NCBI GenBank assembly: GCA_977017645.1
Contig: OZ360224.1
Coordinates: 30,628,001 to 30,692,000 of the forward strand
Reading direction: 5' to 3'
Origin: Torpedo marmorata
Taxonomy: Eukaryota
DNA length: 64,000 nucleotides
Part shown: positions 13,019 through 59,375 of the stretch, piece after piece
Layout: each line of letters starts with the position of its first letter
How positions within the stretch are numbered: the first letter of the stretch is position 1
Notes under the pieces: model-generated
The model's input: the letters and a program-made list of their open reading frames with translations, nothing else
What the model was told of the DNA's origin: nothing
The model's database searches: none
Translations under genes and position numbers: made by a program

Positions 13019-15360
13019 CCGTCTTGTAGTGAGATTCAGGGTTGATCTTGTAAAAGATCACTTCCCTGCGTAAACCCCACACCTTTAATTTCTTTAACAC
13101 TCCAATCTATCCCGTGTATATTCAGTGATTGAGCCTCCGTAGCCCTCTTCATTAATGAACTCCAAAGTTTCATTACCCTCTGCGTGAAGAAATTTCACCT
13201 CATCTCAGTCCTGAACATCAGTTTACATGGTGGGTCTCTGCCAATTACACACATTCAATTGTATTTACCACACTGCATCAGATTTTCAAGCACAGGTACA
13301 TTAACCCATTGTTAATGACCTGAAGCTGCATTGATAAGAGGTCATTCCAAAACCCCAGTGTCTCTTGCATATTGATGCTACACTTAATTCACCTTAAAAG
13401 AGTAAAAATTCAGTCAATTGATCCACCATTTGTATAGGCCCATGACCAATTGAAACCACTTACTGGTCTGATTACTTTCAGCTGGTGTAATATTTGAACT
13501 CAATTTAAATTCAAATTAGTTTACTTCAGTAATCTTATGGCCCTTGACCTGTCAATAATTGCATGAATATCGTTAATGAATGCAACAACAATCAGTATTT
13601 ATCTGGTATTGTCAATATAATAAGCTATCTCAAGGCACTTCACTGATTTGATACATAAAAATCTTGACTAAAGAGATGGATTTCATGGGAACCCATAAAG
13701 TAGAAAGACAAGAGAGGTTTGAAGCAACTCACAGTTTAGATGCAAAACAACTAAAAACTGGATGGCGAAGGGTGCAGCCATGAAAATTGGTGAAATGCAA
13801 ATGTGTAGTACGGGGAGAGCAGATACCTTGAAAAGTTGGTGGGGAAGGAGGAGTTGCAGAGAAAGAGTGGAATATTGATTTCATTGACGGAGGCCTTCAC
13901 ACTTTGGGCTCTCGTAAAATTTGGGGGATGTCCTTCTTTGTTGCAGCAATAATGAATTACAAAAGATTTTTCTGTTTTCGTGTCGGAGCGCTGCAATGGA
14001 TAATTTCCTCCACCTCAGCTGTAAAACCAATACAGCCTGTCCTCTGAAAGTTCCATTTTACAACTCATTTAGATGCTATGACAGGGATTTGAACTGCCAC
14101 ATGATGGAAAGTCCTGACGTAGAGTTCGGGACAAGCAAACAGGAATGCCTTCACCACCTGATGAGACAAATCTCCCCAAAGTTTTATTCCCTTCTATAGT
14201 TTGCTGAGTAAAAATTTGGATGATATTTGGCAGTTATGCGTCAATTTAGTTAGTGTCAGACACCAAGTGAGAAGAGAATATTTAGCTTTCCGAAGATCAG
14301 TGATCAAATGCAATACACTAAAGAGCTGAAGAAACTCAGCAGGTCATGCAGCATCCATAGGAAGTAAAAGGTGACCAATGTTTCGGGTCTGAGCTCTTCA
14401 TCAAGTCATGCAGCATCCACAGGAAGTAAAAGGTAACCACATTTTGAACCTGAGCCCTTTGTTTAACATGGTCTTGTTTATCTTTCAATAATCAAATGGT
14501 ATTTTACAAAAATCTAGAAGTTTCATACAGATACCAGCTTTTTGCACTTGAATTTCCATCACTAATATGTCAATGAGAAATTAGCAATTTCAATGGATTT
14601 ATCCTTGCAGTACTCCCGAGATAGCTCTGAAAGTATGGGAAGAGAAGCCATTCCTGGTATTTCTCTGCCATGATAAGAAAATAAAAATGTACTTAGGTTA
14701 GAACGATCCCACCCAGCTGAAGGAAGATGTTCTTTCAAAGGCCTCAACTGAGCAGTGGAGGATGAGAAAGAATAGTTTTAACATTCAGAGTCACTTGGGA
14801 TACTATTTTCAACTTCTTCTAGAGCTGTTTTAAGGCAACAACTTATTTGGAGTTGTAGGAAAGACAGGCATGGATTTGGGAGACAACAACAAAGTGAGGT
14901 TGGAAATTACAGTGAAAATAGTGTTGGTATAAAGGGAGAAAGGACAGAAATTAGATACAAGATCAAGTGTAGCTAAGGAAAACCCAATTTTGGCTTCGTG
15001 GGCTAATGGGAGGGAAGCAATGAAAATATATTTTTTCCTGATGAAGGGTTTTGGCCCATCTATTGGCTTCCATGGATGCTGCCTGACACATTGAGTTCCT
15101 CCAGCCTTTTGTGTGTTGAAAAGATATTCTCCTTTTTTTGACAAAAATCACACATTAACATCTTGCACTTGTTGTTGGAAGTGTGTGGGAAAAGGAGTGT
15201 AAAGGGATGAAGAAATAGTTTGTAATGGCGTAGTGATGCCAGAAGTTGGTTTTATTCAGCAGATCATGGAAAGCATCTCTCCATGGATTCTGCCTAACCC
15301 ACCGAGTCCCTCCAGCTTCTCTTTGCTCAAACAATAGCAGGAGTAAACCACGAGGCTTCA

Positions 15361-26304: not shown

Positions 26305-27690
26305 CTTAGATTAGATTAGATGCACTTTATTGTCATTGTACCAGTTCAAAACAAGCCAATGAGATACAACTAGCATCCAACCAGAAGTTAAAAAATAGTG
26401 CTATATACATTAGAATAAAACATGTGCAATAAAAACCAACAATAACCTAATCAACAACGACAACCTATTCAACAACAAACTATTATAAAAGTACTGATAT
26501 TACACTGTGAGTGCAGTACCACTCAACGCTATGATTCAGTGTTCATCAGGCTCACAGCCTCATGAAAGAAACTCTTCTTCAGCCTGCTGGTACGCGAGCG
26601 AAGGCTCCTGTAGCGTCTGCCCGATGGGAGAAGAGTAAAAAGTCCGTGGTTAGGGTGAGATGCATCCTTAATAATGTTCCTCGCTCTGCCCAGACACCAT
26701 TCTCTATAGATGTTCTCGATGGTGGGCAACTGCAAGCCAATAATCCGCTGGGCAGTTTTCACCACCCGCTGGAGTACTTTGCGGTCTTGTACTAGGCAGT
26801 TACCATACCACGCCGAGATACCATATGTCAATACGCTCTCAATGGTACATCTATAGAAATCCAATAATATCCTAGGACAGAGGTGTACCTTCCTCATGCT
26901 TCGCAGAAAGTAAAGACGCTGTTGTGCCTTTTTAATCAGCTTTGAAGAATTCAAGGACCAAGTAAGATCTTCAGAAATCTGGACGCCAAGAAATTTAAAA
27001 CTTGACACACGTTCCACCACAACTCCATGAATGTAAATGGGGACGTGAGTGTGGCTTCCAGTACGCCTAAGGTCGACAATGATCTCCTTGGTCTTCTGAG
27101 TATTAAGTATCAGGTTATTATTGGCACACCACAAGGCCAGGTGCTGAACCTCATCCCTATAGGCCGTTTCATCGTCCCCTCTGATCAGGCCAACCACCGT
27201 GGTGTCATCTGCGAACTTGATTATGGAGTTCGTACTATGTACAGGAACGCAGTCGGAGGTAAAAAGGGAATACAAAAGAGGGCTCAGCACACAACCCTGA
27301 GGTACACCGGTATTCAAGGTGAGAATGGAGGAAAAAAGATGGCCTAACTTAACAGATTGGGGTCTGCTCGGTAGGAAGTCCAAAATCCAATTGCAGAGGG
27401 ATGAGCTGATACCAAGCAAACGAAGTTTGGTAATCAGCTTGGAGGGAATAACAGTATTGAAAGCCGAGCTAAAATCTATGAACAGCATTCTGACATAAGA
27501 GTTAGAGCTGTCCAAGTGTGTCAAAGCAGAGTGGAGCACTGTAGAAATAGCATCCTCGGTCGACCTGTTGGTACGGTAGGCAAATTGATGAGAGTCCATA
27601 GTGGCAGGCAAACAGAATTTCAAATGTGATAAAACCAATCTCTCAAAACACTTTGCGATGATGGGAGTAAGTGCAACTGGACGGTAACTT
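26305..27690 (-). mobile_element. Rex1/Babar-like LINE, 5'-truncated, with an open RT domain
   Basis: ORF ending 26529: [54 protein letters not shown]; tail GACAATAAA..(TCTAA)n. Confidence 0.92.
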
Positions 27691-27799
27691 GAAGCTCTCC
27701 ACCATCTCTGCCTCAGCACCTCTTTTTTCTGAAGTCAATGATCGTTTTGCTGGCAACCTGGGAGAAATTGTTATCCTCACTCTCTGTCTCATCTTTGTT

Positions 27800-30046: not shown

Positions 30047-31071
30047 TACTTCCAACACAAGTAATACACTATGTTCTTTTTAGGTTGATTGGAAAGGAAA
30101 ATTAAAAAATGTAGAGGCAGTGCACACATTAATACCTTTCTCAAAGAGACTTCAATAAAATAGAATTATAATTGTTCTTTATAGAAACTAAATTTAAAAA
30201 ATATTAAAACACAAAGAATTTGCAATTTGAGCAATATGTCCAGACAGAGTTCAAACATTCAGACACAAAATAATTTGCACCCTTCAACTTGGCATTGTCT
30301 CAGAATAACCAGTTAGATCACAAAACAACTAGGTTCTTCAAATTTTCTTTTGAAAGCAACGAATTGTTACAAAAAAGGCACTGAAAGCATTCATCTGCTT
30401 GTTTTGTATACATTGCAAAATTTGTTAAAAAGCAAAAACAAAAGTTGTCTTTGAATAAATGTAGAACTGTCACTACAGTATTCAAGACAGCTCAAGAACT
30501 TAACATGATCTGTGAATAGATTTCTTGCTTTCAAAGCACAAAGTCTCAATGTGACTCACAGATATGCAAAAACACACATGATAAACGCAAACACAAAAGT
30601 CATGCAAGTGCTGAAACAACACACACACAATAATTTATTTATTGTGCAAGCATAGTGGTCAAAAGCTCAATTATCAAAGATCAAAGGTGAAGGAAAATAC
30701 TTTTTGCTCCAGAATAACATAGCAACAGATTAAATAATTAATGACATCAATGCATGAAACTGTTGGACCTGCCATATTAGTTCACTTTACACATTGATTC
30801 CTTTTTATGAGAATTGAGTGCCACTGGCAAGACTTGTATTTAGTGCCCATTCCTACATGGCCTTGAGAAAGCAGTGGTGAGCCACCTTCGTGAACTACTT
30901 AGTGAGTTCCGGAATTGTGATCCATCTATGATTAAGGAATAGCGATGTATTTCCATGGCAGGACTATGTACACTTTATGGGGACATCTCCATGTGGCGGT
31001 GCACCTGTGGACCTGCTATGATAGTCCTTTTTTAGTATGAAAGGTGTCCACATGTGCACAAGTAAATGCAG

Positions 31072-31465
31072 TGTAAGGGTTAAATTGAATTGTAAGTTGA
31101 AAGCAGCTAGAATATTGTTTACGAATTCCATGAGTATGTCTCCATAGTAACAGTTTTTAGCCAAGGTCTTTTTTCTGTGAGTTTAATATAAACAAGTTAG
31201 TTTTGAATTTGCATTTGTACTGTGTAGAACCAGAGCAAAATGAAGACGGTCCGGATAATTTCTTTAACCGTTCGTTTGCAAGTATTAACGTATTAATATT
31301 TTATTGGCCGTTTATTAACTGTTTTAAGTATAGTTTAATTGTTTTAATAGTTCTAATAAACAGTAAAAAACTCAATGCTACTTTAGAACGGACTATTCGT
31401 TTAACAAGTCAAACAACGATGTCTGCATGCTGCCCAAGCGATTATAAAGGGAAATAGTCACAATA
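31072..31465 (+). repeat. 5' LTR of BEL copy 1
   Basis: Starts TGTAAGGG; direct repeat of 39118-39528 (roughly 95% by eye). Confidence 0.93.
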
Positions 31466-31655
31466 TTTTAGTCAAAGAAAATTAGGACTATTGACTCGTA
31501 AATCAATAGAAGACTATTTAGTCAAAATAATTTGGATTATTGACTCATTAGTCAATAAAATGGACAATTGACTCATTAGTCAATAGAAGATAGATCTTCA
31601 AGCAAGACTATTTAGTCAAATGAATGGACTATTGACTCGTTAGTCAATAGATGAC
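31466..31655 (+). repeat. Tandem array of short palindromic units in the leader of BEL copy 1
   Basis: Four copies of approx. CTATTGACTC(A/G)TTAGTCAATAG plus three TTTAGTCAAA. Confidence 0.85.
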
Positions 31656-31785
31656 GGAATTGAAGACATAGAAAGTTGGAAATTGGATTTGGAAGAGAAG
31701 ACTGGATCGATTGGGCTCTGTTTAGAGCAGATCGATAAGGAGGCACAAACATCAACAACCAAGACCATTGAAGAAGCGGTAAGCC

Positions 31786-34081
31786 CTCTTGGAAATAGCG
31801 ATCATAGTATGATTGAATTTTTCATACAGATGGAAGGTGAAATAGTTAGATCTAAAACTAATGTATTATGCTTAAACAGGGGAGACTATCACAGGATGAG
31901 GGAGGAATTGGTCAGCGTGGACTGGGAGCACAGGCTAGTTGGTAGAACAGTTGAGGAACAGTGGAAGATTTACAAGGAGATTTTTCACAATGTTCAACAA
32001 AAATATATTCCAGTTAAGAATAAGGGCAGCAAGAGAGGGAAGAGTCAGCCGTGGTTAACTAAGGAAATAAAGGAGAGTATAAAATTAAAAGCTCAGGTGT
32101 ACAAAGTTGCAAAGAGTAGTAGGAAACTGGAAGATTGGGAAAACTTTAAAAAACAACAAGGAACAACAAAGTGGGTAATAAGAAAGGGGAGAAAGGATTA
32201 TGAAGGTAAATTGGCACAAAATATAAAAACAGATAGCAAAAATTTTTATAAATATATAAAACAGAAGAGGGTGGCTAGAGTTAACATAGGACCCTTGGAA
32301 GATGAGAAGGGGAAATTGATATTGAATAATGAGGAAATGGCCGAGGCCTTGAACAAATATTTTGTGTCAGTCTTCACGGTGGAAGACACGTCCAGCATGC
32401 CAAAGAGTGGAGATAGGGATGCGAATGTTGGTGGAGGCCTTGATAAAATAGTTGTTACAAAGGAGATAGTGATGAACAAACTAATGGGACTAAAGGCGGA
32501 CAAATCCCCTGGTCCTGATGAAATGCATCCCAGGGTTCTGAGGGAAATGGCAGAAGTTATAGTCGATGCATTGGTGGTCATATACCAAAATTCTCTGGAT
32601 TCTGGGCAAGTCCCGGCAGATTGGAAGACAGCAAATGTCACGCCACTTTTTAAGAAGGGAGGTAGACAGAAGACTGGGAACTACTGGCCAATTAGCTTAA
32701 CTTCTGTAGTTGGGAAAATGATTGAAGCTGTCATTAAGGATGAAATAGTGAGACATTTAGAATGAAAGGGTTCAATCAGGCAGACGCAGTATGGGTTTAG
32801 GAAGGGCAGATCTTGTTTGTCAAACTTGTTACAGTTCTTTGAGGACATAATGGGTGCGGTAGATAGAGGGGAACAGGTTGATGTTGTATATTTGGATTTC
32901 CAGAAAGCGTTTGATAAGGTGCCGCACAAGAGACTTATCAGTAAGTTACAGATGAATGGAGTCCAGGGAAGTATATTGGCATGGATTGAGGATTGGTTGT
33001 CTGACAGGAGGCAGAGAGTCGGGATAAATGGGTGTTTTTCTGATTGGCAGACAGTGGTAAGTGGGGTGCCTCAGGGGTCGGTGCTGGGCCAACAACTGTT
33101 CATCATTTACATTGATGATTTGGAGGAGGGGACAAATTGTGGTGTAGCCAAGTTTGCGGATGATACTAAATTGAGTGAAAGAGCAAATTATACTGAGGAT
33201 GTGGAGATGCTGCAGAGGGATATAGTTAAGTTAGGTGAGTGGGCAAAGGTCTGGCAGATGGAGTACATTCAGTAAGTGCGAGGTTATCTACTTTGGCAAG
33301 AAAATAAAAGAGCAGAGTATTATTTAAATGGTGAAAAACTGCAGCATGCTGTAGTGCAGAAGGACTTGGGAGTGCTTGTGCACGAATCGCAAAAGGTTGG
33401 GTTGCAGGTGCAGCAGGTTATTAAGAAGGTAAATGGAATGTTGGCCTTCATTGCTAGAGGAATTGAATTCAGGAGCGAGGAGGTAATGTTGCAACTGTAC
33501 AAGGTACTGGTGAGACTGCACCTGGAGTACTGTGTGCAGTTCTGGTCTCCATATTTGAGGAAGGATATACTGGCCTTGGAGGCAGTCCAGAGGAGGTTCA
33601 CTAGGTTGATCCCCGAGATGAAGGGGTTGACTTATGATGAAAGATTAAATCGTCTGGGATTATACTCGCTCGAGTTCAGAAGAATGAGAGGAGATCTTAT
33701 AGAAACATATAGAATTATGAAGGGGATGGATAGGAAGAGGTAGGAAGGTTTTTTTCACTTGCGGGTGAGACCAAAACTGGGGGACACAGCCTCAAGATTC
33801 GGGGGAGTAGAGTTAGGACAGAGATGAGGAAAAACAGTTTTTCCCAAAGAGTGGTGAATTTGTGGAATTCTCTACCCAGGGAAGCGGTTGAGGCTGCTTC
33901 ATTGAACATATTTAAGGTTCAGTTGGATAGATTTTTACATAAAAAAGGAATTAGGGGATATGGGGAAAGGGCAGGTAGGTGGAGTTAGGTCATTGATCAG
34001 ATCAGCCATGATCTTATTGAATGGCGGAGCAGGCTCGATGGGCCGGTTGGCCTACTCCTGTTCCTAATTTCTTATGTTCTT
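31786..34081 (+). mobile_element. 5'-truncated CR1 LINE nested in BEL copy 1
   Basis: ORF pieces homologous to the CR1 at 9919-13018 (PLGNSDH, PQGSVLG, FADD) with a few stops and frameshifts; tail TTCTTATGTTCTT. Confidence 0.95.
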
Positions 34082-34483
34082 AGCCATTGGAAGTTCCTTC
34101 TGTGTGTTTATTACAAATTAGAACACAGTTTGGTGCAATTGCCTATGAGGACTGTTTTGGTTCTGGAGAGATGGGTGTGCATGTTTGATGTCTGAGTGCG
34201 ACAAACGACACAATGGAAGAAACAGAATCTGTAGCTGCTAAGGAGCTATGTGTCGAGAAGATGAAGAAAACAGAACTTAAAGATTAATTGCAAAGGCAGC
34301 AATTAGATAAAGGGAAATAAAGCGACTCTTCAAGCAAGACTGAGGGAGGATATAGATAAGAAAAGGATTACAGTTGTTAGGGATACACATCCCACAAAAT
34401 TACTGCAAAAACCATTAATAGAATTTGAGACCGACCTCTCACTAGTGGCTGAAGCTATATCACAAGATGGTGGTGTGGAGGAT

Positions 34484-35345
34484 TATTACGTGCTCCCAGT
34501 TCATTTTCAATTGAGTGAGACTGTCACTTTAAGAGAACAAATCAAGCTGCAAGTTTGGGAGTTTGACTGTGATTTGACAGACTAGGACAGCGTGTACTAA
34601 ATTGGATACATCTGAATAGAGAGGAAGTGGCCCTGGAAAACACAGGTGCAGAGACCATGTGACCAACAGATTCAAGACACAGGACACAGTTTGCTCAGGG
34701 GCCATTTTAAGGAAGCAGCACTTGGAGAAGCATCTCTTTAAAGGGATACTGTGCTGAAGTGGCCTCGTGTGGTAATAGACAATTTGTCTGATTTCTCTCT
34801 GTAAGAAGAATGAGTTTACCCCACCGTGGCCAAAGGAATGGTCACTTTTGAAGGGGGATTAGTGTGCAACACTGTGACCAGAAGGGAAGGTCACTATTTC
34901 GGCTGACCCACGAAAGGGTTCTGGAAGCTTTGTGAAAGCCACTCGCTTCGTTTCCCCAAGGAAAAGAGGAGTTTTGATTGCCACTCGTCTGAAAAGGACA
35001 TTTCTTTGGAAGCACCTCGACAAGGATTTCGTGAGTTTACAACAGTCTGTCACCCCGGTCTCTCCCACCTACTCCGTGATTACTTCTTTGATCAATTTAA
35101 GAGTCTTCGTGTCAACACTGGATTTTCTGAGACTGAACTTTGGACTAACATTCCAGAATTGTGCCTGAGCTGTAGTGGCTTGGGGTATTCCACACACCCA
35201 TAAGTATATTCGCGCATAGTTGGGGGTTAAGTTGATAAGTTTAGATAAATTAGATAAGGTGTTATATTATTGGTAATTAATAATTAAAAATATTATTTTA
35301 AATATAACACTGTCTTGGCTAATTTCTATTGCTGCTGTCGTAACA
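34484..35345. mobile_element. Solo LTR (probably Gypsy-type) nested in the BEL gag
   Basis: Inverted termini TATTACG (from TGTTACG)...CGTAACA; 4-bp TSD GGAT (34480-34483, 35346-35349). Confidence 0.8.
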
Positions 35346-35349
35346 GGAT

Positions 35350-37774
35350 GAACAATCCAAAATAGAGACATGGTCAGAGATTAAAGCAACACCTGACGTA
35401 CAGGACCTAATAGGACCTAGCGATAGTGCGTCAAATACTTCCAGCAGGAGAAGTAAGATGAGCTCTAGAGCAGGCTCCAGAGTTTCAAGAACTGAATCTA
35501 TGCGTTTAAAAATTCAAGCAGACGCGGCAGCTCTTAAAGTGGAAAGGCAATGAATGCTTCAGTATGAATTGGACTTAAAAGATAAGGAGGAGCTGCTAAG
35601 AATGGAGGAAGTTCAGCTAAAAAAGCAAAAGAAGCAACTGGAACTGGACAGAAAAATTGCTGTTAATGAGGCCAAGTCACAGGCACTAGAAGGCTCAGTG
35701 GTATTTAGTGCTCGAAGTAAAGTACCAAAAGCATCAAGTTTTGATGAAGGACTTCAGAAAAAGAAAATATTGAATACCAAAGCTGAGCCAGTGCTACGAT
35801 ATCCATACGGGCTTGGTCCTGAAATCGACAGGTCTAGACAAAGGGCTGAGCCAGTGATAGAATCATAATATATGCTTGGTCCTGTACCAGGCAGGTTACG
35901 GCACGGGGCTGAGCCAGGGCCGCGGATGCGAGATGTGCAAGATCCCGGATTAACCGGGTTGATGCAAGGAGCCAGAGTTCAAACCCCAATGATGGCCACA
36001 TTGGACAAAGATGGGAGCCAAATGCCATCTCTTATAGGGTCATACCAAGCGCTCCCGGCAAGTATTAGAAATCTGGGTGAACAAAGTAACGTACGCCCAG
36101 GCACAACAAAACAAGATGAGATAGCTGCATCATTAATGTAGTTACATACTCTCTCCTTTCTGCCCAAGAGAGAGATACCATATTTTTATGGTGACCCCCT
36201 TGAATTCCACTCGTTTATGAAAAGCTTTGAACGCAGTATTGAAATTAAGTGTCAAAGCCAGGAGGATTGTTTATATTTTTTGCAGCAGTTCACAAGAGTA
36301 CCACCACAAGAACTCGTAAAGAGTTGCCAACATATGAATCCTGATGTAGGATTCAAATAGGCTAAGTGGTTACTAGAGAAGCATTTTGGCGACAAGTATA
36401 GAATTTCTAGAGCTTATTTACAGAAGACTCTTTCATGGTCGTTAATAAGACCAGAGGACAAGAATGGTTTACAAGCTTACGCCCTCTTTCTAAGAGGATG
36501 TTGCAACGTCATGACGGAGATTGGCCACCTTCAAGAGCTTGACATACCTCAGAATATGGTAAACATTGTAGATAAATTACCCAAATGGATGAGAGAATTA
36601 TGGAGAAGTCAGGTTGTTGAATACCAAAGAAGAAACTACGTGACAGCTACTTTTAAGTATTTGGTGGAGTTCATTGAAGGACAAGTGGACGTTGTCACAG
36701 ATCCAGTGTATTGAATTAAAGGTACTCAAACAGTGAGTAAAGAAGTTGAAAAGTCCAAATCGTATTCTCTACCAAAATTGAAGAAAAGTACATTTGCCAC
36801 CTCTCTGACAGTGGAATTAAGGAAAAGGAAAGTTTGCCTGCTGAGAAGAAATGTTTGTTCTGTAATAATAAGCACGATTTGGAAAAGTGTGCACAGATGG
36901 AAAAAACGCATAGTGAGAAAATCGCTTTTTTGAAGAAAAATGGAGTATGTTTTGGCTGTCTGTGTAAAGGACACATCAGCAAAAACTGCAAAAAGCGACT
37001 CAGCTGTGATATATGTAGTCAAAAACATCCTAAGATACTACATATCTTCAAGGAAAAGAATACGGAAAAGGAACAAACGTCAAGGGAAGAAGCAGATGAA
37101 AACAGTGCTGACGCTTCAGTATTGACAAGTGGTCTTACTGGGGCCGGTGCAGATAACTGCAAACTCTCAATAGTGCCTGTACAAGTTAAGGCCAAGAATG
37201 GGAATGCAACGGTATGTACACATTCATTTCTTGACCCAGGAAGCACTGCGGGGCTTATGAAAAGGCTTAATCTTGAAGGAAAAAAGTCAAGGATTCCATT
37301 GAAAACCATGGGACAAGAAAAGGTCATTGAAACTAACATGGTTTCAGGGTTAGATGTTGCTGGAATACACAGCGACGATTTTTGTGATCTTCCAGGCATA
37401 TATACACAGAAGACTATGCCTGTGCATAAAGGAAACATCCCACATCAAAGTGATGTGGATCAGTGGTCATATCTGAGAAAGGTTTATATACCGGAAAATA
37501 GATCTGAGATAGAGATGCTAATTGGTTTAAATGAACCAAAGAAGTAATTCCGAGTGTGAGAGATGGACCTTACGCTATCAAAACTATGCTTGGATGGACA
37601 ATCAATGGACCATCAGAAAGATAGAATGATATTGCTCAGAAGCAGTCAACAACAGGTGTCAATATGATATCTGTTGTGAAACTCAACGAACCATTGAAAC
37701 AACCGTTCAAGACAGACTTTCCTGAATGCCTTGATAACAATCAAAAACCTTCAAAAGAATACAAACAGTTCTAA
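35350..37774 (+). pseudogene. BEL gag-protease region, disrupted by stops and frameshifts
   Basis: [78 protein letters not shown]. Confidence 0.9.
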
Positions 37775-38225
37775 GAAAATCTTACTGACGAAAATAAATC
37801 AAGAGCATCTAAACCAGTAAAGAAGAAATTGTTTTCATCAAAAATGGATGAAAATGAAGTATTAGAAGATGCTGCAAATACTGCTGGTGATTATTCTTGC
37901 GAAGCAAAATCTGGGGCAGGAATGAAACAAATGTCTGGGAACAAATCTGAAAGTAGCTTTTGTAGCCCAGATGCACCAGCAAACAAGATCAATGCAGCAT
38001 GTTTTAAAATGAGCGAACACAGAAAATTGTGCTGATGGTATAAAGGAGCATTTCATTGACAATATGGTGCAACTGCCTTCAGAGTACAAAATGTTGAAAA
38101 GGAACTTAGAAATATTGGATATTCCAGAAAACAGTGACCAAAAGGGTTTTAACTTTGTACTTGGAAACAAAACTGAATCTGATGATTCTTCAGTTTTGAA
38201 AGTAAACAAGAGAGAAGATCAGAGA

Positions 38226-38774
38226 GCAGTTGACAAGAATGGAGAATTAATTGTAAATATAATTCGTAAAACCAAGCGGAAGAAAAGAATAACTGCTAAA
38301 GAAATGAATGCAGTTATTGAAGAAAGGGATTTAGCCTTATCAAGATGCATACAGTTGAAAGAGGAGATTCATTTTTTGAAAGAGAACAAGTCATTGTTTA
38401 ATGACACAAAACAACTGACTATGGAAAACAATCAAGAATGTACCTTGAAGACCCAGTTAATAACGATGCAAAAAGAAAGGAATATTACATTTCACCAATG
38501 TAAGAAGGAAGGTGAAAAAATTCAAACATCTCGAGTATACTACAGAAGGGCTGAAAGCAGAGGTACCAATGCATCAAATAACCTTTTTACTCCAAGTCAA
38601 GTTACTAACTTCTCAGAAGATAACAGGAAAATTACTTTCCTATTGAAAGAATTAAATGCAGAGAGGGAGTCTAATAAAAGACTTCAAGATAAATTGTCAG
38701 AAAATGAGACTGAATTGGAAGTTGCAAAATTGGATCCGGAATTACAGGAAAAGACAATAGAAGCCAGAGTGGCT
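38226..38774 (+). pseudogene. Captured, intronless, order-permuted MIPOL1-like coding segment in BEL copy 1
   Basis: KNGELIVNIIRKTKRKKRITAKEMNAVIEERDLALSRC..LTMENNQECTLK..IQTSRVYY followed by TPSQVT..ITFLLKEL..SNKRLQDKL..ELQEKTIEARVA. Both blocks match MIPOL1 as I recall it, but in reversed order. Confidence 0.85.
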
Positions 38775-39117
38775 GTTGATGAGTTTGAGGAACCAATGTC
38801 GTTTGAGTTCTACCTTTTCTATAACCAACTGCAGAAGAGAAAGAAAAAAGGCCCATCTTGTGCCCTCAAGAAAGTGAATACCTTGGAAATTAAGAATCGT
38901 GTTCAAGCACTGGATAGGGCCAGGGCAAAGCGGATTAAGACTAAAAATGGCTTTATGAAACAGACCAATTACCAAAATCTGTCTTTTACGAGAAGTAGAG
39001 AGCTTTAATGATAGACTTTCACTTTCTTTTGAATATTTACCCAATGTATTACTATGTTTGTTTTTTTCTTTATAATGGTAATTATTATTTTTAGATATAA
39101 TAATTAGGGGCCAATAT

Positions 39118-39528
39118 TGTAAGGGTTAAAATGAATTATAAGTTGCAAGCAGCTAGAATATTGTTTACGAATTCCATGAGTATGTCTCCATAGTAACAGT
39201 TTTTAGCCAAGGTCTTTTTTCTGCGTGTTTAATATAAACAAGTTAGTTTTGAATTTGCTTTTGTACTGTGTAGAACCAGAGCAAAATGAAGACGGTCCGG
39301 ATAATTTCTTTGACCGTTCGTTTGCAAGTATTAACGTATTAATATTTTATTGTCCGTTTTATTAACTGTTTTAAGTATAGTTTAATTGTTTTAATAGTTC
39401 TAATAAACAGTGAAAAACTCAATGCTACTTTAGAACGGACTATTCATTTAACGAGTCAAAAAATGACATCTGCATGCTGCCCAAGCGATTATAAAGGGAA
39501 ATAGTCATAAAGGGAAATTGTCGCTACA
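39118..39528 (+). repeat. 3' LTR of BEL copy 1
   Basis: TGT...ACA, preceded by the purine tract and followed by the TSD. Confidence 0.93.
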
Positions 39529-40958
39529 TGCAGTAAATTTTGAAGAGAATAAATAATTCAACCAAGTGCCAGTGATAAGAGTGAGAAAATGTTTTAGGTG
39601 ATAGATATGGTGCCAATCAAGCAAGATGGATATCAATCATCAAATGTCGGAAATGCACTCAAAAAGGTGTGTGAAGAGTATTTAATCTTGTCTCCTTGAG
39701 TTACAAACCTACGAGGAAGATGAACAATTTTAAGAAAATCTTCAGGAAGAGCAAATCCCCCCCCCTCAAATTAATTTGCAACTAAGTCTATGTAAATCAC
39801 CACAACCCACCCCCCCCCCCCCCACCCACCCTCCACCCAATTAAAGTTGCCCAAAGCTTCATATAGGTTTGTAGGCTTCTTAGGATGTCTGGTCATGAAG
39901 GTCATTCTGAGACCAAAGGATCCCCTTAATCTTTTGTTTGCAATTTCCCCAATTCAATTCTAATTTGCATTAAAAGAGGTCAAAATTCAGTTATATTATA
40001 AACTTTGAAGGATTTTCCCAGAATAATACTTGATGTTTAAATTTCAAAAAGGTCTCATTTTTTCCCCACTTATTGATGTTGATGAATTTAGCTCAAATAG
40101 AGTGGTATCAACAGTTTTTGCTAAGAATATAAAATATAGAAAATAGTTATAAAGTTTATAAATCAAATAAAAACCATTAAAGGCTTTGAACGTGAGTAAA
40201 ATACTTTTTAAAATGTAGATTCCCCATTTCAGAGCTCAAGAATCATTGTTCAAATCATTTTGGCTCAGATTCTATGCAAGACTTGTCCTGGAGTCAAATC
40301 CAAATGGTTATTCTCCATGTGTAGCACCTATCATTCAGTAAGTCCTTAACTGAGGGTGGGCAAATGCAAAACCCAGGATAACTTTTGTGCAATTGGTGAA
40401 CACCGGTGGTTCCCTTTGAAACAACGGCCAATGTGACTTAACCCATTATTTCCATTTCTCTTTCATCAGATTCTGTCTGACGTTTGGTGTTTCCATCAAT
40501 TTTGGTTTTGATTTCAGATTAGTAACTGATTCCTTGCTTTAGTTAGTAGTTATTACATTGGCATAAGACGTAGTCTGGAGGATTTGATCCAATTTTTTTT
40601 AAATAATATGTTTCTGTTGTTTCATTTATGCAACCCCACTGCTCTAACTTCTATTTATTCCTCTCCTGCATGACAAAAGTGTTTTAATTCAGTCTTTAAA
40701 ATACAGACACAAGTTACATCACCAAGCAGTGGAAACTTTAGTACTAGAGAGAGACTGGCTGAGTTCAGTCTATTTTGCTGAATAAAATAACTACTACCCT
40801 TTTTCCACTGCATAATGTAGAAACTTACATCAGAAAATTGTTGAGTTTTATGTGGATTCTGCAGCAGTCTCTGTAATTTGGAGCAAGAAGTAAGTCGGAC
40901 ACCATATTTATCAGCAGTTAGCCAGCTAGCTAGCCAGACCAGTAGTTAGAACTGGTAC

Positions 40959-48989: not shown

Positions 48990-50638
48990 TTAAAAAAAAA
49001 ATATTTTATTTAAAATTTTTAAATCACACATTACATAGTTTAAAATGCAAAATTATCAAATTACATGTGATACATTTTCACCCCCCCTCCCTCCCCTCCC
49101 CTCCCTAACCCTCCCGAAAAAAAGAAAGAAGAAAAGGATAAAGTAAGGAGAATGTCACTCTAAACAAAACAACTATAAACTAATTTCATTGTGGAGCACA
49201 GGTTCGCCAGTCAGATCCAATATCCGGAGATCTTCAAATCCTTAAACCGACAGTTTTTATATATGGGCTCCATATTTTCAAGAAGAAATTATATTTATTA
49301 CGTAAATTATAAGTAATTTTTTCAAGTGGTATACATGAACGCAATTCTGCATGCCATCTTTCTAACCCTAAATCTACATCAGATTTCCATGTAATAGCAA
49401 TGCATTTCTTAGAAACAGCTAAAGCAATACGTAAAAATTCTGTTTGATAAATATTTAATTTCATTTTAACACTGATTCTTTTAATATCTCCAAACAAAAA
49501 TATCATAGGATCCATTGGGAGTGTAATTCTTAATACTTTATCAAAAAACTTTTTAACTTTCAACCAAAAATCATATATCTTTGGACAAAACCATGTAGAA
49601 TGTACAAAAGAACCTTCCTCTCTATTACATCTAAAACACAAGCCGGATAATGTTGGATTAAATTTCTTTAATTTTTTTAGTGTTAAATATAATTGATGAA
49701 AAAAGTTATATTGCACCAATCTATATCTAACATTAATAATCTTCGTCACACTTTGTTTACATAATTCTTTCCAATGTTCTTCATCTATTGTTACGTTCAA
49801 ATCTGTTTCCCAATTTAATCTTGATTTATGAATTCCTGGTTTAGGCATTTTCCTCTGTAACAATCTATACATTTGAGAAATAAATTTATTAACACCTCCA
49901 TTAGTAACTAATAATTCCAATTCACTCTGTCTTGGTAAAGTCAAACTATAGCCCAACCTTTCAACTAAAAATGCTCTGATTTGATAATAAGCAAAAATTG
50001 TATTATTTGATATATTAAACTTATCTTTCATTCTTTGAAAAGTAATAAATTTACTAGCTTCAAAACAATCATTTATTTTCTTAATTCCCTTTTGGAACCA
50101 AATTTTAAATAATTGATTATCAACAGTAAATGGAATAAGTTTATTTTGATACAGAGGCATTTTTCGAGAAATTGATCCTTTCGCTCCTATCTCTCTATTC
50201 CATATTTCTAACAAATGTCTAAAAATAGGAGAATTTTTCCCTCTTGTTAATAATAATTTAGAATTCCATTTATAAATAACTTCTTCTTTCAAATCTTCTC
50301 CTATATTATTTAATTCTATTCTAATCCAAGCAGAAAATTTTCCTAAATCAAACATTTCGTTAATAAATTTTAATTGGGCTGCTTTATAATAATATTGAAA
50401 ATTAGGAAGTTGTAAACCACCCATTTCATAATTCCAAATTAATTTCTCCATACCTACTCTAGCCAACTTTCCTTTCCACAAGAATTTCCTAATAATTAAA
50501 TTTAAATCTTTAAAACATTTTTGAGGAATTTCATAAGGAATTGATTGAAAAAGATATTGAATTCTCGGAAAAACATTCATTTTAATACAATTTACCCTTC
50601 CCATTAAAGTTATAGGTAAATCCTTCCAACTCTCCAGA
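48990..50638 (-). mobile_element. Second L1 family, 5'-truncated, nested in the host L1
   Basis: 13-bp TSD TTTCCACAATCTT (48977-48989, 50639-50651); open 456-aa ORF2 C-terminus with CFRC..H..C. Confidence 0.93.
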
Positions 50639-53600
50639 TTTCCACAATCTTAAAAGGAAGATTAGGTGCATTCAAAGGGAAAAGTTCACTTTTATGCAGA
50701 TTTAATCTATATCCTGAAAACTGACTAAATTGAGAAAGTATTTATAGCATAGATGGTAAGGAAGTGTCAGGGCTTGATAAGAAAAGCAAAAGATCATCCG
50801 CATAAAGGGAAACTTTATGTTCAATTCCCTTCCTACAAATCCCTGAAATATCCTCGGACTCTCTAAATGCAATCGCTAATGGCTCTATGGCCAAATCAAA
50901 GAGTAATGGACTTAGAGGACATCCTTGATAGGTTCCCCGTTGGAGATTGAAAGGTTGTGACTGTTGAAAATTAGTGAGAATTGAAGCCATAGGGCATGAA
51001 TACAATAATTTAATCCATGAAATAAAACATGGTCCAAAATAGAATTTTTCTAAGATCGTAAATAAATACATCCATTCAACTTGATCAAACACTTTCTCTG
51101 CATCAAGGGAAAGAACACATTTAGGAGCCGCATTGGAAGGTAAATATAAAATATCCAATAAGCGACGTATATTAAAATAAGAGTAACGGTTTTTAATAAA
51201 ACCAGTCTGAGCTTCAGAAATGATAGATGGTAAAATATTCTCCAATCTATGGGCAAAAAATTTAGGCAAAATTTTTACATCTACATTTAATAAAGAAATT
51301 GGCCTGTGGGAGGAGCACTCAGTTGGATCTTTACCTTTCTTTACTATGAGAGATTTACACGCTTCGTTAAATGTTGCTGGGAGATTACCCTGCCTAAACG
51401 AATCAGATAACACAGAACTTAATTGAGGTGAAAGCAATTGAGAAAATGATTTGAAAAACTCCACATGAAACCCATCAGGTCCTGGAGCTCTTCCAGAATG
51501 CAATGAAGAAATTGCAGCAGCTATTTCCTCTTGCGATATAGGCTAATCTAGTCTCGTTTGGTCATCCGAAGAAAGCGTGGGAATATTTAAGCGATCCAGG
51601 AAACTATTCATCAAACTGCTATCATTTGTGAATTCAGAAGTATAAAGTCGGGAATAAAATTTACGGAATGTATCATTTATCTCAGAATGATCTGTAATAA
51701 TGTTACAATCCTCCTTTCGAATCTTTGTAATTAGCCGCTTGGCTTCAAAACCTCTCAACTGATTAGCTAAAAGCCTACCAGATTTATCACCATGAATATA
51801 AAACTGACTCTTACTCTTTAACAGTTGCCATTCAATCGGATACGTCGAAAGGAGATCAAATTTAGTTTGAAGTTCAACTTGCTTTTTATATAACAGGATT
51901 TTTAGTTTGAGCATATTGTTGATCTATTTGTTTAATTTGATTAACTAATTCTAATCTTTCTTTATTGGCCTTCCTTTTTATATTCACAATATAAGAAATA
52001 ATTTGCCCCCTCAGAAAAGCTTTCAAAGCATCCCAAACAATCAAACTAGAAGTTTCTGATGAAGTATTTGTATCAAAGAAAAAAGTTATCTGCTACTCCA
52101 TAAATTTCACAAAGTCATTACCTGATAGCAAACTCGATTTGAAATGCCAACGTCTTTTAATTTGAGGGAGGCTAGGAAGAGTCATAGATAATACAAAAGG
52201 GGCATGATCTTATATTACTATACTCTGATAATTACAAAAACGAGTCAGTGGGATCAGTTGATTATCAATAAGAAAATAATCAATTCACGAATAAGTTTGA
52301 TGAATGTGTGAAAAGTAAGAATACTCTCTCCTATTTGGATAAAGAAAACGGCAAACATCAGAAATACCATAATTTGATAAAAAAGAATGAATCAATAAGA
52401 CAGATTTACTCATTGTGGTAGGGTTAAGAGACGAGCGATCCAAAGCAGGGTCTAACCAACAGTTAAAATCCCACCAAGTACCAGAGAGGATAAACTCAAG
52501 TAAGGAAGAAAAAAAAACATTCAAAAAACCCCACCTCATCTACATTAGGGGCATAAATATTAGCAAAAACTACTATTTTATTATACAATTTCCCTGAAAC
52601 AATGACATAACGACCATTTGTATCTGATACAACATTGTGATGAACAAAAGGAATATTATGATTAATAAGAATCGAGACCCCCCCTGGCTTTAGCCTTAAA
52701 GGAGGAATGAAAATGCTGCCCCCTCCACCTTGTCATGAGGCAGGAATTATCACAACTACGAATATGCGTTTCTTGTAAAAAAATACAATAGTAGCTTTAA
52801 GTTGTTTAATTCTTCTCTTAACCAGATGATTCAAACCTTTTACGTTCCAACTAAGGAAAATTAATAGAATTATCCATACTTTTTCATGAATAATGTAAGT
52901 TGGTTAGCACAAGTAATATCCAGACTCCAGGTGTCAGCCTTGAGGCAAAGATTTGAAACTGGTACTAAATTGTAAATATCCCTTACAAGGTCAGAATTTG
53001 TACAGATTCCTAAAGCCATAACAACCTTGAGAAAACAACCCCACACCCTCCCCCCCTCCCTCCAACCCCAAAGCCAGACAGCTGCTAAAGATGTCAACAG
53101 CAGGCTCTTCAAAACAATCCATTTTGCACCCAAATAAATCTTCCTGCTGGACATGTTATATCTAGCTCCATTCCTGTTAATGTAAATATAATCAGCTCTT
53201 CCAAACGATACATAATTCTATTATGACTACACCCAAAAAAAAAAGAGTTCTTTTAAAATTTCTCATGTAACTTTAAAAAGTATATGATAAAGTAAAAATT
53301 TGAATCATTATTACTAAAAGAAAAATGAATGTAAAATTCTCAATATTCTTCTCTCAGTTTTCTTCTCGTAAAAAATTCAATAGCTCAATGAATTTAATAC
53401 AAGAAAAATACTCCATGAATACAACCCTAGTAGGTTTATTACCCCATAAAAAAAAATTGCCTGGGAAAATAAAGCCAGCCAGTCATCGACCAACAAATAT
53501 TATGTAACAAGTGTTAGAAACCTTAAAAGTAATAATAGACAATCATCTTCAGTCATCAGGTAGAAATTCACACTGGGCACGATGTAGAAGGGAGATCATC

Positions 53601-54722
53601 TAGGTAGATCCGAGCCTCTTCAACCGAGCGCAGCCACTCCTTGTGTCCATTAGAAAGTGTAACGCGGAGATGCGCGGGATACATCAAGGAAGGTGTAAGA
53701 GCCGTAGGCTTGGTTACTTACCTTAATCGCGGCGTTCCAATGGTCTCAGCGAGGTTCGGAGGAGACACGGAGATTAGTAGGACGTGCTGGGACTATTGAG
53801 TATTCTGCGCATGCGCTAGAGTGCCGATGGGCACATGCGCAGTTGGGAAGTGACGGCAGTATGCGCGGTGGAGTATGTGCAGTTGGAGCATGCGCGAATC
53901 GGGGAAGAAGGAGTATAAAATATGGCGACCAAGGAGGGTGAGTGAGATCGCCATATCTTTCATTGACCGTCAAAAGAATGTTTAATATAACGTTTAAAGG
54001 ACATTTAAAGTAACATTTTAAAGGATCGTTTAAAGAACGTTTAAATGAGTGTTAAAGGAATCGTTTAAAGGAAGTTTATAGACGTTTTGAAGAATCGTTA
54101 TTAAGCATCGTTATCAAGAATTGTTTACATTTCATTAAAGAAGATATTTAAGTTATTGAAGATTGCTACAAGTTATCATGTGTTAATAAACATTTTGAGC
54201 ATATTGGACTTTGTTAGTAAATTAATTGAAACGCGTCAAGAACAAGTATCTCACCTAGCCTCCAAGTGATTATTTGTTGGATTGAAGTCACTATATGTTA
54301 CTCAATGAAAGAATTATTGTTTGGAACAGAAAATTGAAGGAAAGAAGATAGAATAATCTCTCTGTGCTTTGGACTGATATTTAAAATAAAATGGTGGCCA
54401 TCTTGGAAATGCCTCGAGTTAGGGGCAGTTTGTAATCCATATCCATCTGCCATGAATAACAGCCAGAAAGGGATTTAGAGCTTCAAATCTTATAGTAAAG
54501 TGTCCTATAAATAAGTTGGAGAAACCATTTCTGGAAAATCAGCGATATTATTGACGGATGTTGTGGTGGAAACTCGTTTGTGAATAGCAGCACATTACAG
54601 TCATCTGAAGTGGTAGGCATAAGTCTGTGGACTCCTGTGTATCTTTGGCAAGTTAGAACACAGATTGGATTTGCTGCCGCTAGTCCATTGGGGACTGTTG
54701 ATTTGGCTAGTGTTGTGTATGC

Positions 54723-56098
54723 TTTTTTAAAAAAAAAATTTATTTAAAATTTTTAATCACAAGATAGTACATGTTTATAAATTTCAGAAATATCAAAATA
54801 CATGTGATATATTTTCACCCTCCCCTCCCTTCCCCCTCCCTTCCTAACCCTACTACTCTAATAAAAAAAAAGAGAAGGAAAAAAAAGGATAGTGGAGAAT
54901 GTCAATCTAAAAGAAAACAACTATACATTAATTTTATTGTGGAACACAGGTTTGCCAGTCAGACCAGATGGCAAGAGATCTTCAAATCTTTAAACCCACA
55001 GTTTTTATATATGGGCTCCATACCCTCAAAAAGAAATGATATTTATTACTTAAATTATAAGTAATTTTTTCAAGTGGTATGCATGAACGAAGTTCTGCAT
55101 GCCATCTTTCTAACCCTAAATCTACATCAGATTTCCATGTAATAGCAATGCATTTCTTTGAAACAGCCAAAGCAATTTGCAAAAATTCTATTTGGTACAT
55201 ATTTAATCTCATTTTAATACTAATTCTTTTAATATCTCCAAACAGAAATATCATAGGATTCATTGGGAGTGTAATTCTTAATACTTTGTCTGAAAACTTT
55301 TTAACTTTCAACCAAAAAGCATGTATCTTTGGACAAAACCACGTAGAATGTATAAAGGAACTTTCTTCCCTATTACATCTGAAACATAAATCTGATAATC
55401 TCGAGTGAAATTTCTTTAATTTCTTAGGCGTTAAATATAATTGATGCAAAAAATTATATTGTACTAACCTATATCTAACATTAATAATTTTAGTCATACT
55501 TTGTTTACATATTTCTTTCCAATGTTCCTCATCTATTGTTATATTCAAATCTGATTCCCATTTTAATCTTCATTTATGAATTCCTGGTTTAGGCATTTTT
55601 TTCTGTAACAATTTATACATTTGAGAAATAAATTTATTTATACCCCTATTAGTAACTAGTAACTCCAATTCACTTTGCCTTGGTAAAATTAAACTATGAC
55701 CCAACCTTTTAACTAAAAATGCTCTCATTTGATAATAAGCAAAAAGTATTATTTAGTACATTAAACTTCTCTTTCATTCTTTGAAAAGTGATAAATTTAC
55801 TAGCTTCAAAACAATCACTTACTTTTTTAATCCGATTTTGAAACCAAATTTTAAACAAATGATTATCCATAGTAAATGGGATAAGTTTATTTTGATACAA
55901 AGGCATTTTACAAGAAACTAACCCTTTCCCTCCTATCTCCCTATCCACTTTATTCCATATTTCTAACAAATGCTTTAAAATAAGAGAGTGTTTACCTCCT
56001 CTTAATAGCAATTTGGAATTCCATTTATAAATAACTTCTTCTTTTGAATCTTCTCCCATATTATTTAATTCTATTCTAATCCAAGCAGAAGATTTTTC
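54723..56098 (-). mobile_element. 5'-truncated L1 (same family as 48990-50638) inside BEL copy 2; the 5' part of gag is missing at this point
   Basis: Colinear high similarity to about 48990-50340; no TSD found. Confidence 0.9.
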
Positions 56099-57666
56099 TG
56101 ATTTACAAGAAAATTACAATCGAAGAGCTACCTTAAAAGACTTGGTAAATTTTCTTGAACGACAGGTGTACATTGAAACAGATCCAATATATGGAAATAC
56201 CAGAGACAATTCAATGGGAAACAAAGATGAAAAGAGTCCAACTCACAGCCTCATCCGAAATTGAAAAGGAGTACTTTTGCTACTAATGTGTCAGTTATAA
56301 ATAAAGAAAAAGATAAAGTAAATAAGGAAAAGGAAAGTTTGACTAATGAGAAGAGTTGTTTGTTCTGTAAAGGCGGACATACTTTGGAAATGTGTTTACA
56401 GCTGGAAAAGAAGGAACATAATGAGAAGATCGCTTTCTTAAAGGAAAATGGAATATGTTTCAGCTGTCTGTGTAAAGGGCACATCAGTAAAAACTGTAAG
56501 AAGCGACTTAACTCTAACATATGCAATTTGAAACATCCTAGAATGTTGTATATCCATCAAAGAAAGAAGGAATTGGAAAAGGAGCAAACAGAAACAAAGG
56601 AAACAACAGAAAACAATGTTATAACCTCGGTTCAGACAAGTAGTCTGACCGGGGCCGGTACAGATAACTGCAAACTTTCAATAGTGCCTGTACAAGTCAA
56701 GACCAAGAAAAGGGGATGCAACAGTACATACATATGCATTTCTCGACCCAGGCAGTACTGCATCGTTTTGCAAGAAAGGACTAATGAACAAACTTAATAT
56801 TCAAGGAAGAAGGTCAAGAATTATGTTGAAAACCATGGGACAAGAAAAGGTCATTGAAACCAGCATTGTTTCAGGCTTAGAGGTTGCTGGATAGGATGAC
56901 AAAAAATTTTGTGATCTTCCAAGCTTATATACTCAGAAGACTATGCCTGTGCACGAAGGAAACATTCCGCATCAAAATGATTTCCATCATTTGTCTTATC
57001 TGTGGAAGGTTTATTTACCTGAAGTTAACTGAGATAGAAATGCTGATTGGGTCAGATGTGCCAAAGGTTTTGGAACCACTAGAAGTAATACGGAGTAGAG
57101 GGAGTGGACCATACGCTATTAGAACCAAGCTTGGTTGGACAATCAATGGACCACTGGAAAGAAATAATGATATTGCTAAGGAAAAGTTAGCGATAAATAT
57201 TAATAGGATTTTGGTTGTGAAAGTTGATGAGTTAAGGGAAGAGCAAAAGACTGTGAATAAGAAAGTCACTTTTGAAGAAAAGAAAACAGATCAATGTGAA
57301 AATAAATCAAAGGTATTAAAAACAACATTGAAGGAATTATGTTCATCAGAAATGGATGAAAATTAAGTATTAGAAGATGTTGCAAATAATACTAGTGATT
57401 ATTCCTGTGTAATTGAATCAGAGGCAGGAATAAAACAAGTGACTGAGAACAAATTTGAAAGTAGATTTTGTAGTTCAGAGGTTTCAGCAGACAAAGTCCA
57501 TGAAGAAATGTTGCAATGTGATGTAAAACTGGAGAACGCAGAAAATTGTGCTGATGGAATAAAGAAGAATGTGAATGATAATTTAATGCAATTGAATTCA
57601 GAGAACAAAATGTTGAAAAGGGAATTGGAAATATTAGATAATCATGAAAACAGTAAACATAAAGAT

Positions 57667-58103
57667 TTAATTGTAAGTAAAATTCGCAGTCAGAAAGCGG
57701 AAGAAAAGTATGACTGCTGAAGAAATAAATACAGTTATTCAGGAAAGAGATTGAGCATTATCAAAATGTAAAAGATTGGAGGAAGAGATTAATATTTTGA
57801 AAGAGAACAAGTTATTGGTTAATAACACAAAAGTTGATTATAGAAAACAATCAAGAATGTAAATTGAAGGTTCAGCTACTAACAATGCAGAAAGAAAGTG
57901 ATATTGTATTGCAGAAATGTAACAAGCAAGATGAAGAAATTCAAAAATTTCACAGCAGGGTTGACAATAGAAATACTAATGTATCACATGATATTTTCAC
58001 TTCAGATCAAGTTATTAATTTCTCGGAAGGAACTGAGACTGAATTGAAAGTTGCAAAATTTTATTTGGAATTGCAGGAAAAGGTAATAGAAACCAGAGTG
58101 GTT
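57667..58103 (+). pseudogene. Second copy of the permuted MIPOL1-like segment, in BEL copy 2
   Basis: MTAEEINTVIQERD*ALSKCKRLEEE..ENNQECKLK..EEIQKFH|SRVDNR..FTSDQVINFSE..LELQEKVIETRVV, with frameshifts and an internal deletion. Confidence 0.82.
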
Positions 58104-59375
58104 AAAGAGACTCGTTTATTAAAATCGAGAGGATCAGATAATTATTCAAATTCTGGTTCTAAGAGTTTAAATTCTTCACATGAGAAATGGAATACTGAAG
58201 AAAGGAATAAAGTGAAACGACATGCTGAAGAAGTGCCTCGTGTTAAATTCAAAAGAAAAGCTGTATCTATTTTGTCTGAGGAAGATTTGAGGTTTACTGG
58301 TCAACATTCTAACTCAAAGATTCTGGAGATAAAAGAACTTTGATAAATACAAACTGACTTTATGTTGTTGTTGTATACTACACAGGTTACAGACTTTTAT
58401 TGATCCAGAGTTATGGTAAACTCTGGTTTTATGAAGAAAGAAGAATTGTATATTGTTTGAATGTTATATGGTTATTGTTATTTATAAATGATTGTGTAAT
58501 TATTATTTAAGACATTGCGTCTAATTATAATAATTAGGGGCCGGTGTAAGAGCCGTAGGCTTGGTTACTTACCTTAATCGCGGCGTTCCGATGGTCTCAG
58601 CGGGGTTCGGAGGAGACACAGAGATTAGTAGGCCGTGCTGGGACTACTGAGTATTCTGCGCATGCGCTAGAGTGCCGACGGGCGCATGCGCAGTTGGGAA
58701 GTGACGGCAGTATGCGCGGTGGAGTATGCGCAGTGGAGTATGCGCGAATCGGGGAAGAAGGAGTATAAAATATGGCGACCAAGGAGGGTGAGTGAGATCG
58801 CCATATCTTTCATTGACCGTCAAAAGAATGTTTAATATAACGTTTAAAGGACATTTAAAGTAATGTTTTAAAGGATCGTTTAAAGAACGTTTAAATGAGT
58901 GTTAAAGGAATCGTTTAAAGGAAGTTTATAGACGTTTTGAAGAATCGTTATTAAGCATCGTTATCAAGAATAGTTTATATTTCATTAAAGAAGATATTTA
59001 AGTTATTGAAGATTGCTACAAGTCATCATGTGTTAATAAACATTTTGAAGATATTGGACTTTGTTCGTAAATTAATTGAAACGCGTCAAGAACAAGTATC
59101 TCACCTAGCCTCCAAGTGACTATTTGTTGGATTGAAGTCACTATAGAAGGCTTGGAACCACGCTTGTACAACTCTGACATTATTTCTCTGTATTTGGCGC
59201 GCTGCTTCATAATTTCGGGACAGTAATCTTCTACAATCCTGATCTGCTGGCCGCAATAATTGAGTTTCCCTCTTCGACGAGCTTCACGAATCAAAGAATC
59301 CTTTATTTGATAATGATGTAGCCGAAGAATAACCGAGCACGGTCTCTGCTCCAGAGCCGGCTTAGGACTTTTCCT

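Follow-up and report, generated by a model that had tools for sequence, protein, structure and literature searches.

In the mouse, pseudogenes derived from the circular RNA circRFWD2 (33 of high confidence, 42 in all) are found beside MMERVK10C-int sequences; the mechanism by which circular RNAs are retrotransposed was left open by Dong et al. 2016 (PMC4897178). LTR-mediated retrocopies form a second group of related systems. The cases given by Tan et al. 2016 (PMC5131818) include a two-gene chimera in the Pao element BATUMI, a retrocopy in the mosquito element BEL18, the four-gene 'Super' retrocopy of the mouse and the maize element Bs1, with three genes and 1-5 copies. Circular RNAs of MIPOL1, the gene of interest here, occur in mammals, for example hsa_circ_0031700 (PMC8783515) and circ-Mipol1 (PMC9888537, PMC8176118). 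Here we describe a retrotransposon from the ray Torpedo marmorata, found in a stretch of 64,000 nucleotides of contig OZ360224.1 (the window), which has features of both groups.

The window contains a non-autonomous BEL/Pao LTR retrotransposon (copy 1, 31067-39533), the RT-to-integrase region of which is replaced by host cargo (Table 1). A 5-bp target site duplication (TSD) is expected for BEL/Pao elements. Both this hallmark and LTRs with TG...CA ends are present in copy 1, and between the two LTRs host mRNA pieces, without poly(A), take the place of the internal ORFs. Comparison with the autonomous BEL polyprotein of this genome gave E 1e-108, with no match in copy 1 to aa 1034-2075 of that protein; since RT, Peptidase_A17 and integrase are absent, copy 1 is classed as non-autonomous. 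It shares with the autonomous BEL/Pao elements L124-L128 the Gag and protease (aa 1-1011), the C-terminal tail of Pol (aa 2076-2126) and the purine tract that precedes the 3' LTR, whereas the core with RT, Peptidase_A17 and integrase (approximately aa 1012-2075) has given way to cargo. The autonomous polyprotein (L124:1885-8286) starts with a SAP domain (E 1.3e-8). Copy 1 is inactive: frame changes and two nested insertions disrupt its gag-protease frame. The first of these insertions is a LINE, probably of the CR1 type. Pfam searches revealed DUF1759 in sister copy L080 (E 4.8e-10) and DUF1758 in sister copy L087 (E 0.003, below the curated cut-off); two ORFs of copy 1 that were tested match neither domain, and the cargo frame matches no Pfam family. 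Elsewhere in the window, LINE-type RT frames are present on the minus strand at 10008-13106, 26529-27734 and 49234-51923, one of them with 1,032 codons and both endonuclease and RT.

Table 1. Features of the two BEL/Pao elements, in positions of the 64,000-nt window
Feature	Position	Strand	Remarks
TSD TGCAG	31067-31071 (left), 39529-39533 (right)		Flanks copy 1
5' LTR (TG...CA)	31072-31462	+	95.7% identity to 3' LTR over 393 columns
Nested LINE insertion	31786-34092	+	Later than the element; RVT_1 at 32766-33272; sister copies L074 and L117 lack it
Second nested insertion	34484-35344		Sister copies lack it
BEL/Pao gag-protease region	35344-37772	+	Frame broken; matches aa 113-1033 of this genome's autonomous BEL polyprotein
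BRCA1 mRNA fragment	37775-38226	+	77-88% identity; joins nt 77-149 of native exon B9 to the opening 402 nt of the large exon by splicing
Spliced MIPOL1 exons g-i, g starting at nt 45-48	38222-38545	+	Ends at exon i donor; 86-90% identity to native
Back-splice-type junction	38538-38557	+	Exon i end / exon c start at 38545/38546; phase 2 to phase 2, in frame
Spliced MIPOL1 exons c and d, d up to nt 94	38546-38775	+	92% identity
Elongin A fragment	38769-38848	+	Native exon E4 nt 788-870
Short remnant, 72 nt	38843-38914	+	88% identity to the IARS1-to-NDC80 join of subfamily D
Pol C-terminus remnant	38926-39000	+	DUF5641 region of autonomous element
3' LTR	39118-39528	+	Purine-rich tract directly before it, common to autonomous element
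Second element (copy 2), subfamily B	53692-59033	+	Repeats 53692-54183 and 58543-59033 are its LTRs, 96-98%
Cargo of copy 2	57242-57670 (BRCA1); 57663-58100 (MIPOL1); 58100-58321 (Elongin A)	+	

The central piece of cargo is derived from MIPOL1. Segment 38226-38774 forms an open frame of 183 codons within a MIPOL1 homology that spans 38222-38775 and starts mid-exon, at nt 45-48 of exon g. A protein search with this frame returned MIPOL1 (137 of 787 candidate proteins reach E<=0.001), with a batoid MIPOL1 as best match (E 1.6e-64). Alignment to Pristis MIPOL1 gave two swapped HSPs, aa 352-479 on 38199-38576 and aa ~210-285 on 38544-38774. The native gene is located on the minus strand at G000:C40, with one genome match each for the C-terminal and the middle stretch, and its exons a-j are present once each and in normal order in the 400 kb fetched. 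In the element the order is g (3' part)-h-i-c-d, without introns. Native exon i ends with TACTACAG, followed by gtaagc, and native exon c starts with CAGGGCTGAA, preceded by tag. The acceptor of exon c is a tandem (NAGNAG) site, tag/CAG/GGCT (L060:7879-7881), of which the element junction uses the proximal and the linear contig of organism C the distal site. Exon c starts with A in copy 1 and with C in the native gene; of the 309 exact junction matches, the first 100 listed include 74 with C (hand count).

The donor of exon i is joined exactly to the upstream acceptor of exon c in 56 of 57 copies; copy 2 of the window, with a 9-nt loss at this place, is the sole exception. The ordinary splice joins are exact as well for g-h (59/59) and h-i (60/60), and for c-d in 51 of 57 copies, the other six carrying deletions. 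In subfamilies C and D the MIPOL1 piece extends to about nt 18 of exon e, no element going past nt 20 of that exon, and the mapped copies contain exons g, h, i, c, d and e only, never a, b or j. Exons c-i comprise 780 nt, run from phase 2 to phase 2 and have one stop-free frame around the circle. In Hemitrygon, a MIPOL1 isoform without exon j has its break at the residue of the i-c junction. A sequence-only reading of the window had described 38226-38774 as an intron-free frame of two MIPOL1 blocks in swapped order, joined between phase-2 exon borders, and had predicted a donor at 38545 and an upstream acceptor at 38546. All of this agrees with the native exons. That reading had also named a permuted or tandemly duplicated native gene and a mid-exon junction as grounds for abandoning it; the former was looked for in the native gene and is absent, and the latter is at odds with the exon-exact join. 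The non-colinear junction is therefore not explained by parent-gene order or by a duplication in this assembly.

We consider it likely, from the structure of the insert, that the MIPOL1 piece was copied from a back-spliced circle of exons c-i which was co-packaged and read through at its junction by the RT of a helper element. No exon beyond c-i occurs in the insert, whose length is below that of one circle. Exons c and i are flanked by long introns (49.6 and 61.8 kb), which contain the best reverse-complement match among 36 intron pairs, a match that is weak and not specific: same-orientation repeats between the two introns are as many and stronger (64 vs 59), and the repeats postdate the capture. 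Set against an element copy, a MIPOL1 mRNA-like contig of a related species falls into two swapped pieces that meet at the i-c junction (runs X6 and X8). Native exon b is absent from the runs recorded as RNA. Contigs from four runs guessed to be RNA were compared with native exons c-d and with an element copy: the native ones are linear, and none could be recognised as a native i-c join. Contigs cannot show rare forms, so these results speak neither for nor against the circle, and the circular template is one we infer. For the mouse, the one published primer pair suggests, on our reading, that circ-Mipol1 spans exons e-g and not c-i, and no MIPOL1 rows are present in the supplements of PMC8516421 and PMC8176118.

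Among the other sources of such a junction, trans-splicing of two MIPOL1 pre-mRNAs (donor i to acceptor c), followed by capture of the linear, exon-repeated transcript, is improbable, yet survives best. It would give an identical junction, and because the captured piece is shorter than one circle its sequence would be that of the circle too; moreover, the cargo in PMC5131818 is usually linear poly(A) RNA. Against it, no exon outside c-i occurs in any mapped copy, and MIPOL1 circles of human and mouse are listed in the literature. Non-colinear exon junctions in animals mostly arise from circles. Slightly less probable still is an ancestral MIPOL1 allele with a tandem genomic duplication of c-i, which was captured as ordinary mRNA and later lost. 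The length and phases of c-i would provide an exact, in-frame junction, and the capture is old, with element-type contigs in organisms B and C. Each native exon is present once, however, no repeat was found in the eight MIPOL1 proteins inspected, and the mRNA-like contigs of organism C are colinear.

A chance backward jump of RT on linear MIPOL1 mRNA, or a joining of recombined fragments, would have to hit both exon ends, and we regard it as very unlikely. The family is rich in template switches and deletions, and when the proximal acceptor is used a 3-nt microhomology (AGC) lies exactly at the junction in the linear mRNA; all backward jumps in exons b-j were therefore counted. Of the 6,947 in-frame backward jumps with a microhomology of 3 nt or more, only 3 are exon-exact, which amounts to about 1% over some 20 junctions. 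As an internal control, none of 17 other junction classes (each in at least two copies; hand count) joins two exon ends. One deletion in subfamily B falls 2 and 6 nt from exon ends, via a 6-nt microhomology, and shows that such jumps are drawn to exon ends; on the other hand, the linear mRNA of organism C uses the distal acceptor, with a shorter microhomology. Capture of unspliced, swapped pre-mRNA pieces and later splicing of the element RNA from donor i to acceptor c, conceivable as a route to an exact junction without a circle, is the least credible, as intron-bearing pieces would have to be captured twice, whereas every other join in the cargo is already spliced, and none of the 57 copies has intron sequence at the junction.

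On neither side does the MIPOL1 piece border on BEL sequence: 37775-38226 is BRCA1 and 38769-38848 is Elongin A. As judged from homology, the cargo is a mosaic of spliced pieces from up to five host genes, namely BRCA1, MIPOL1 and Elongin A, with IARS1 and NDC80 in some subfamilies, a point that the sequence-only reading overlooked. The BRCA1 piece upstream of MIPOL1 (~450 nt; 12 proteins among 694 candidates, E 1.8e-71) is spliced across up to four native exons, and the downstream Elongin A piece, which is far longer in subfamilies C and D than in copy 1, across up to five; the native loci are on C61 and C41, respectively. Both have their best matches in the electric ray Narcine. Subfamily D additionally contains a 5' piece of Elongin A, cytoplasmic isoleucyl-tRNA synthetase (IARS1, E 7.5e-78) and NDC80. 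The latter was weak in a first test (E 0.0011) and clear with a longer piece (E 2.9e-14); the short piece matches no Pfam family. All gene-to-gene switch points lie mid-exon. At the BRCA1-MIPOL1 switch 2 nt are shared exactly with today's genes, whereas approximately 17 intervening nt separate MIPOL1 exon e from Elongin A in subfamilies C and D (L086:7589-7607 and sister copies), and later deletions in the elements have overlaps of 5-7 nt. Nine nt of BRCA1 (three codons at the start of the large exon) are kept in the elements and in Narcine and lost in the native gene (L093), so the elements preserve an older BRCA1 allele. The Narcine BRCA1 isoform P0122 lacks the RING domain and is perhaps an annotation chimera; its N-terminus (residues 1-185) may resemble a retrotransposon Gag.

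On the circular-template reading, RT of the helper would have stepped onto the 780-nt circle close to nt 18 of exon e while making the minus strand. Copying d and c backward, it would have passed over the back-splice junction to i, h and g, covering 587 of the 780 nt, before moving on to BRCA1 sequence from nt 48 of exon g. The circular template proposed by the sequence-only reading is supported by what its sequence predictions gave. The template switch at the back-splice junction that it suggested is not needed: RT would read through this junction, and the switches are mid-exon on either side. Co-packaging with template switching is indicated by the position of the likely circRNA copy inside an LTR-bounded, TSD-flanked element, beside four mRNA captures. 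The subfamilies would then be the product of further captures, recombination between co-packaged elements and deletions, and the lines that spread would be those with one open frame from Gag-protease through the cargo, probably because stability or packaging of the RNA depends on translation all the way through.

Four subfamilies were distinguished. C and D, which hold 587 of the 780 circle bases, are closest to the native exons (88-98% identity), followed by A (copy 1 of the window; ~82-94%) and B (copy 2; ~71-91%, with further deletions). A tree of 59 copies and the native gene on MIPOL1 exon coordinates likewise places C and D near the native gene (mean distance 0.068) and A and B on long stems (0.136 and 0.229), with 22 of 22 B copies in one clade (support 1.0); the truncated copy L096, labelled A by the script, groups with C/D. 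The BRCA1-MIPOL1 switch is common to A, C and D (48 copies), and a 3-nt loss in exon h is present in nearly all copies, L087 being without it, which points to a single capture. The shared switch points also show that the element was re-mobilised. D (L112-L116) retains the 5' Elongin A piece but less of pol than C (L078-L092). Since simple deletion turns neither C into D nor D into C, elements that had been loaded separately have probably recombined. Contigs of organisms B and C, from runs guessed to be RNA, span cargo joins or have exon c adjoining exon i sequence; the capture is therefore likely older than the split of these organisms from this species.

That a BEL/Pao element propagates the cargo, as had been supposed from the sequence, is evident from the copy number. 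The junction 20-mer of A/C/D has 309 exact matches (control 0) and the junction pattern of subfamily B 11,397 (control 1); all 20 loci fetched with the latter are members of the family, and by eye it is present in 6 of 10 independently identified B copies. Unselected DNA contains 6 copies in 690 kb, from which approximately 54,000 copies are estimated genome-wide (95% range 20,000-118,000; 6.22-Gb genome). The 62,283 search candidates are no measure of copy number and do not enter these figures. In several B copies, repeat pairs at LTR spacing are 99-100% identical, and the gag-protease of this subfamily is mostly 80-90% identical at the protein level to an autonomous BEL with a 2,134-codon frame; together these suggest recent spread with a current helper. 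Four subfamily B elements with the permuted MIPOL1 piece reside in the introns of MIPOL1 itself (G000:C40 64,340,4xx; 64,408,1xx; 64,487,5xx; 64,495,0xx). About 30 cargo copies of subfamily A lie close together on the same strand at G000:C80:14.8-16.7 Mb, likely as a tandem or segmental array, and L149 (G000:C1:1,498,506-1,518,362) consists of five head-to-tail subfamily B units with a period of 4,964 bp, two of which were fetched and are 99.8% identical.

The reading frame is kept in 15 of the 17 shared junction classes and lost in two; 14 of 16 gives p=1.2e-5. Left out of this count were duplicate fetches of five loci, classes seen in one copy, the BRCA1 difference of 9 nt, which is a loss in the native gene, and four subfamily B BRCA1-MIPOL1 joins that were scored out of frame from overlapping BLAST ends, three of which read in frame. 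Majority-shared substitutions include one stop where 17.9 are expected; when native-branch changes are roughly subtracted by hand, about 0 stops stand where 9 are expected. The shared stop is located in the Elongin A portion of subfamily B. Single-copy changes, in contrast, include 32 stops, with pN/pS of 0.6-1.4. For shared changes, native-branch changes included, pN/pS is 0.50-0.55 in BRCA1 and 0.56 (A), 0.88 (B) and 1.43 (C/D) in MIPOL1, the latter range giving little sign that the MIPOL1 amino acids matter. An open reading from protease to Elongin A is present at 7 of 21 subfamily B junctions. The copies were mostly picked as best matches and the subfamilies share history, so these counts are not fully independent. 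In view of the shared stops, the retained frames and the shared pN/pS values, selection for read-through is favoured over selection for the MIPOL1 protein sequence.

The circular-template reading predicts a specific 780-nt circle, which can be tested, and would make the element a fossil record of back-splicing in the ancestral ray germline. A non-autonomous element that keeps a host mosaic in frame at no fewer than 11,397 copies also turns the need for translatability into a testable question. As a practical matter, false circMIPOL1 calls and false paralogues of BRCA1, MIPOL1 and Elongin A are to be expected in rays. A more speculative and rather doubtful picture is that a circRNA with an endless frame supplied an in-frame coiled-coil module, that the resulting Gag-protease-BRCA1-MIPOL1-Elongin A fusion works in spreading the element, that the junction now ranks among the commonest repeats in a vertebrate genome of 6.2 Gb, and that transcripts or small RNAs from it act on the five host genes.

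Both ingredients, retrocopies of circular RNA and multi-gene capture by LTR elements, are known; the combination, the scale and the frame retention were not found in print, and a search of the open-licence literature gave no report of this BEL/Pao cargo family. The sequence-only reading was right that circRNA-derived pseudogenes are known from mammals and overlooked that their association with LTR sequence in the mouse was already in print (PMC4897178). Like the circRFWD2 copies, the family described here has a multicopy back-splice junction, no poly(A) and LTR-element sequence in the flanks. In circRFWD2 there is no intact LTR-bounded carrier, whereas here the carrier is a BEL/Pao element with LTRs and TSD, in a cartilaginous fish, and instead of 33 copies there are at least 11,397 junction copies with the frame kept open (PMC4897178). 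The likeness to LTR-mediated retrocopies, as PMC5131818 describes them, is also clear: spliced host pieces replace internal ORFs, switches are mid-exon, several genes are joined in one element, and the pieces are in sense orientation, often in frame, and re-mobilised as non-autonomous elements. In PMC5131818 the word 'circular' is absent and each case comprises a handful of copies, in contrast to the up to five genes, four subfamilies and, by estimate, tens of thousands of copies found here, with the frame retained over 14-23% lineage divergence.
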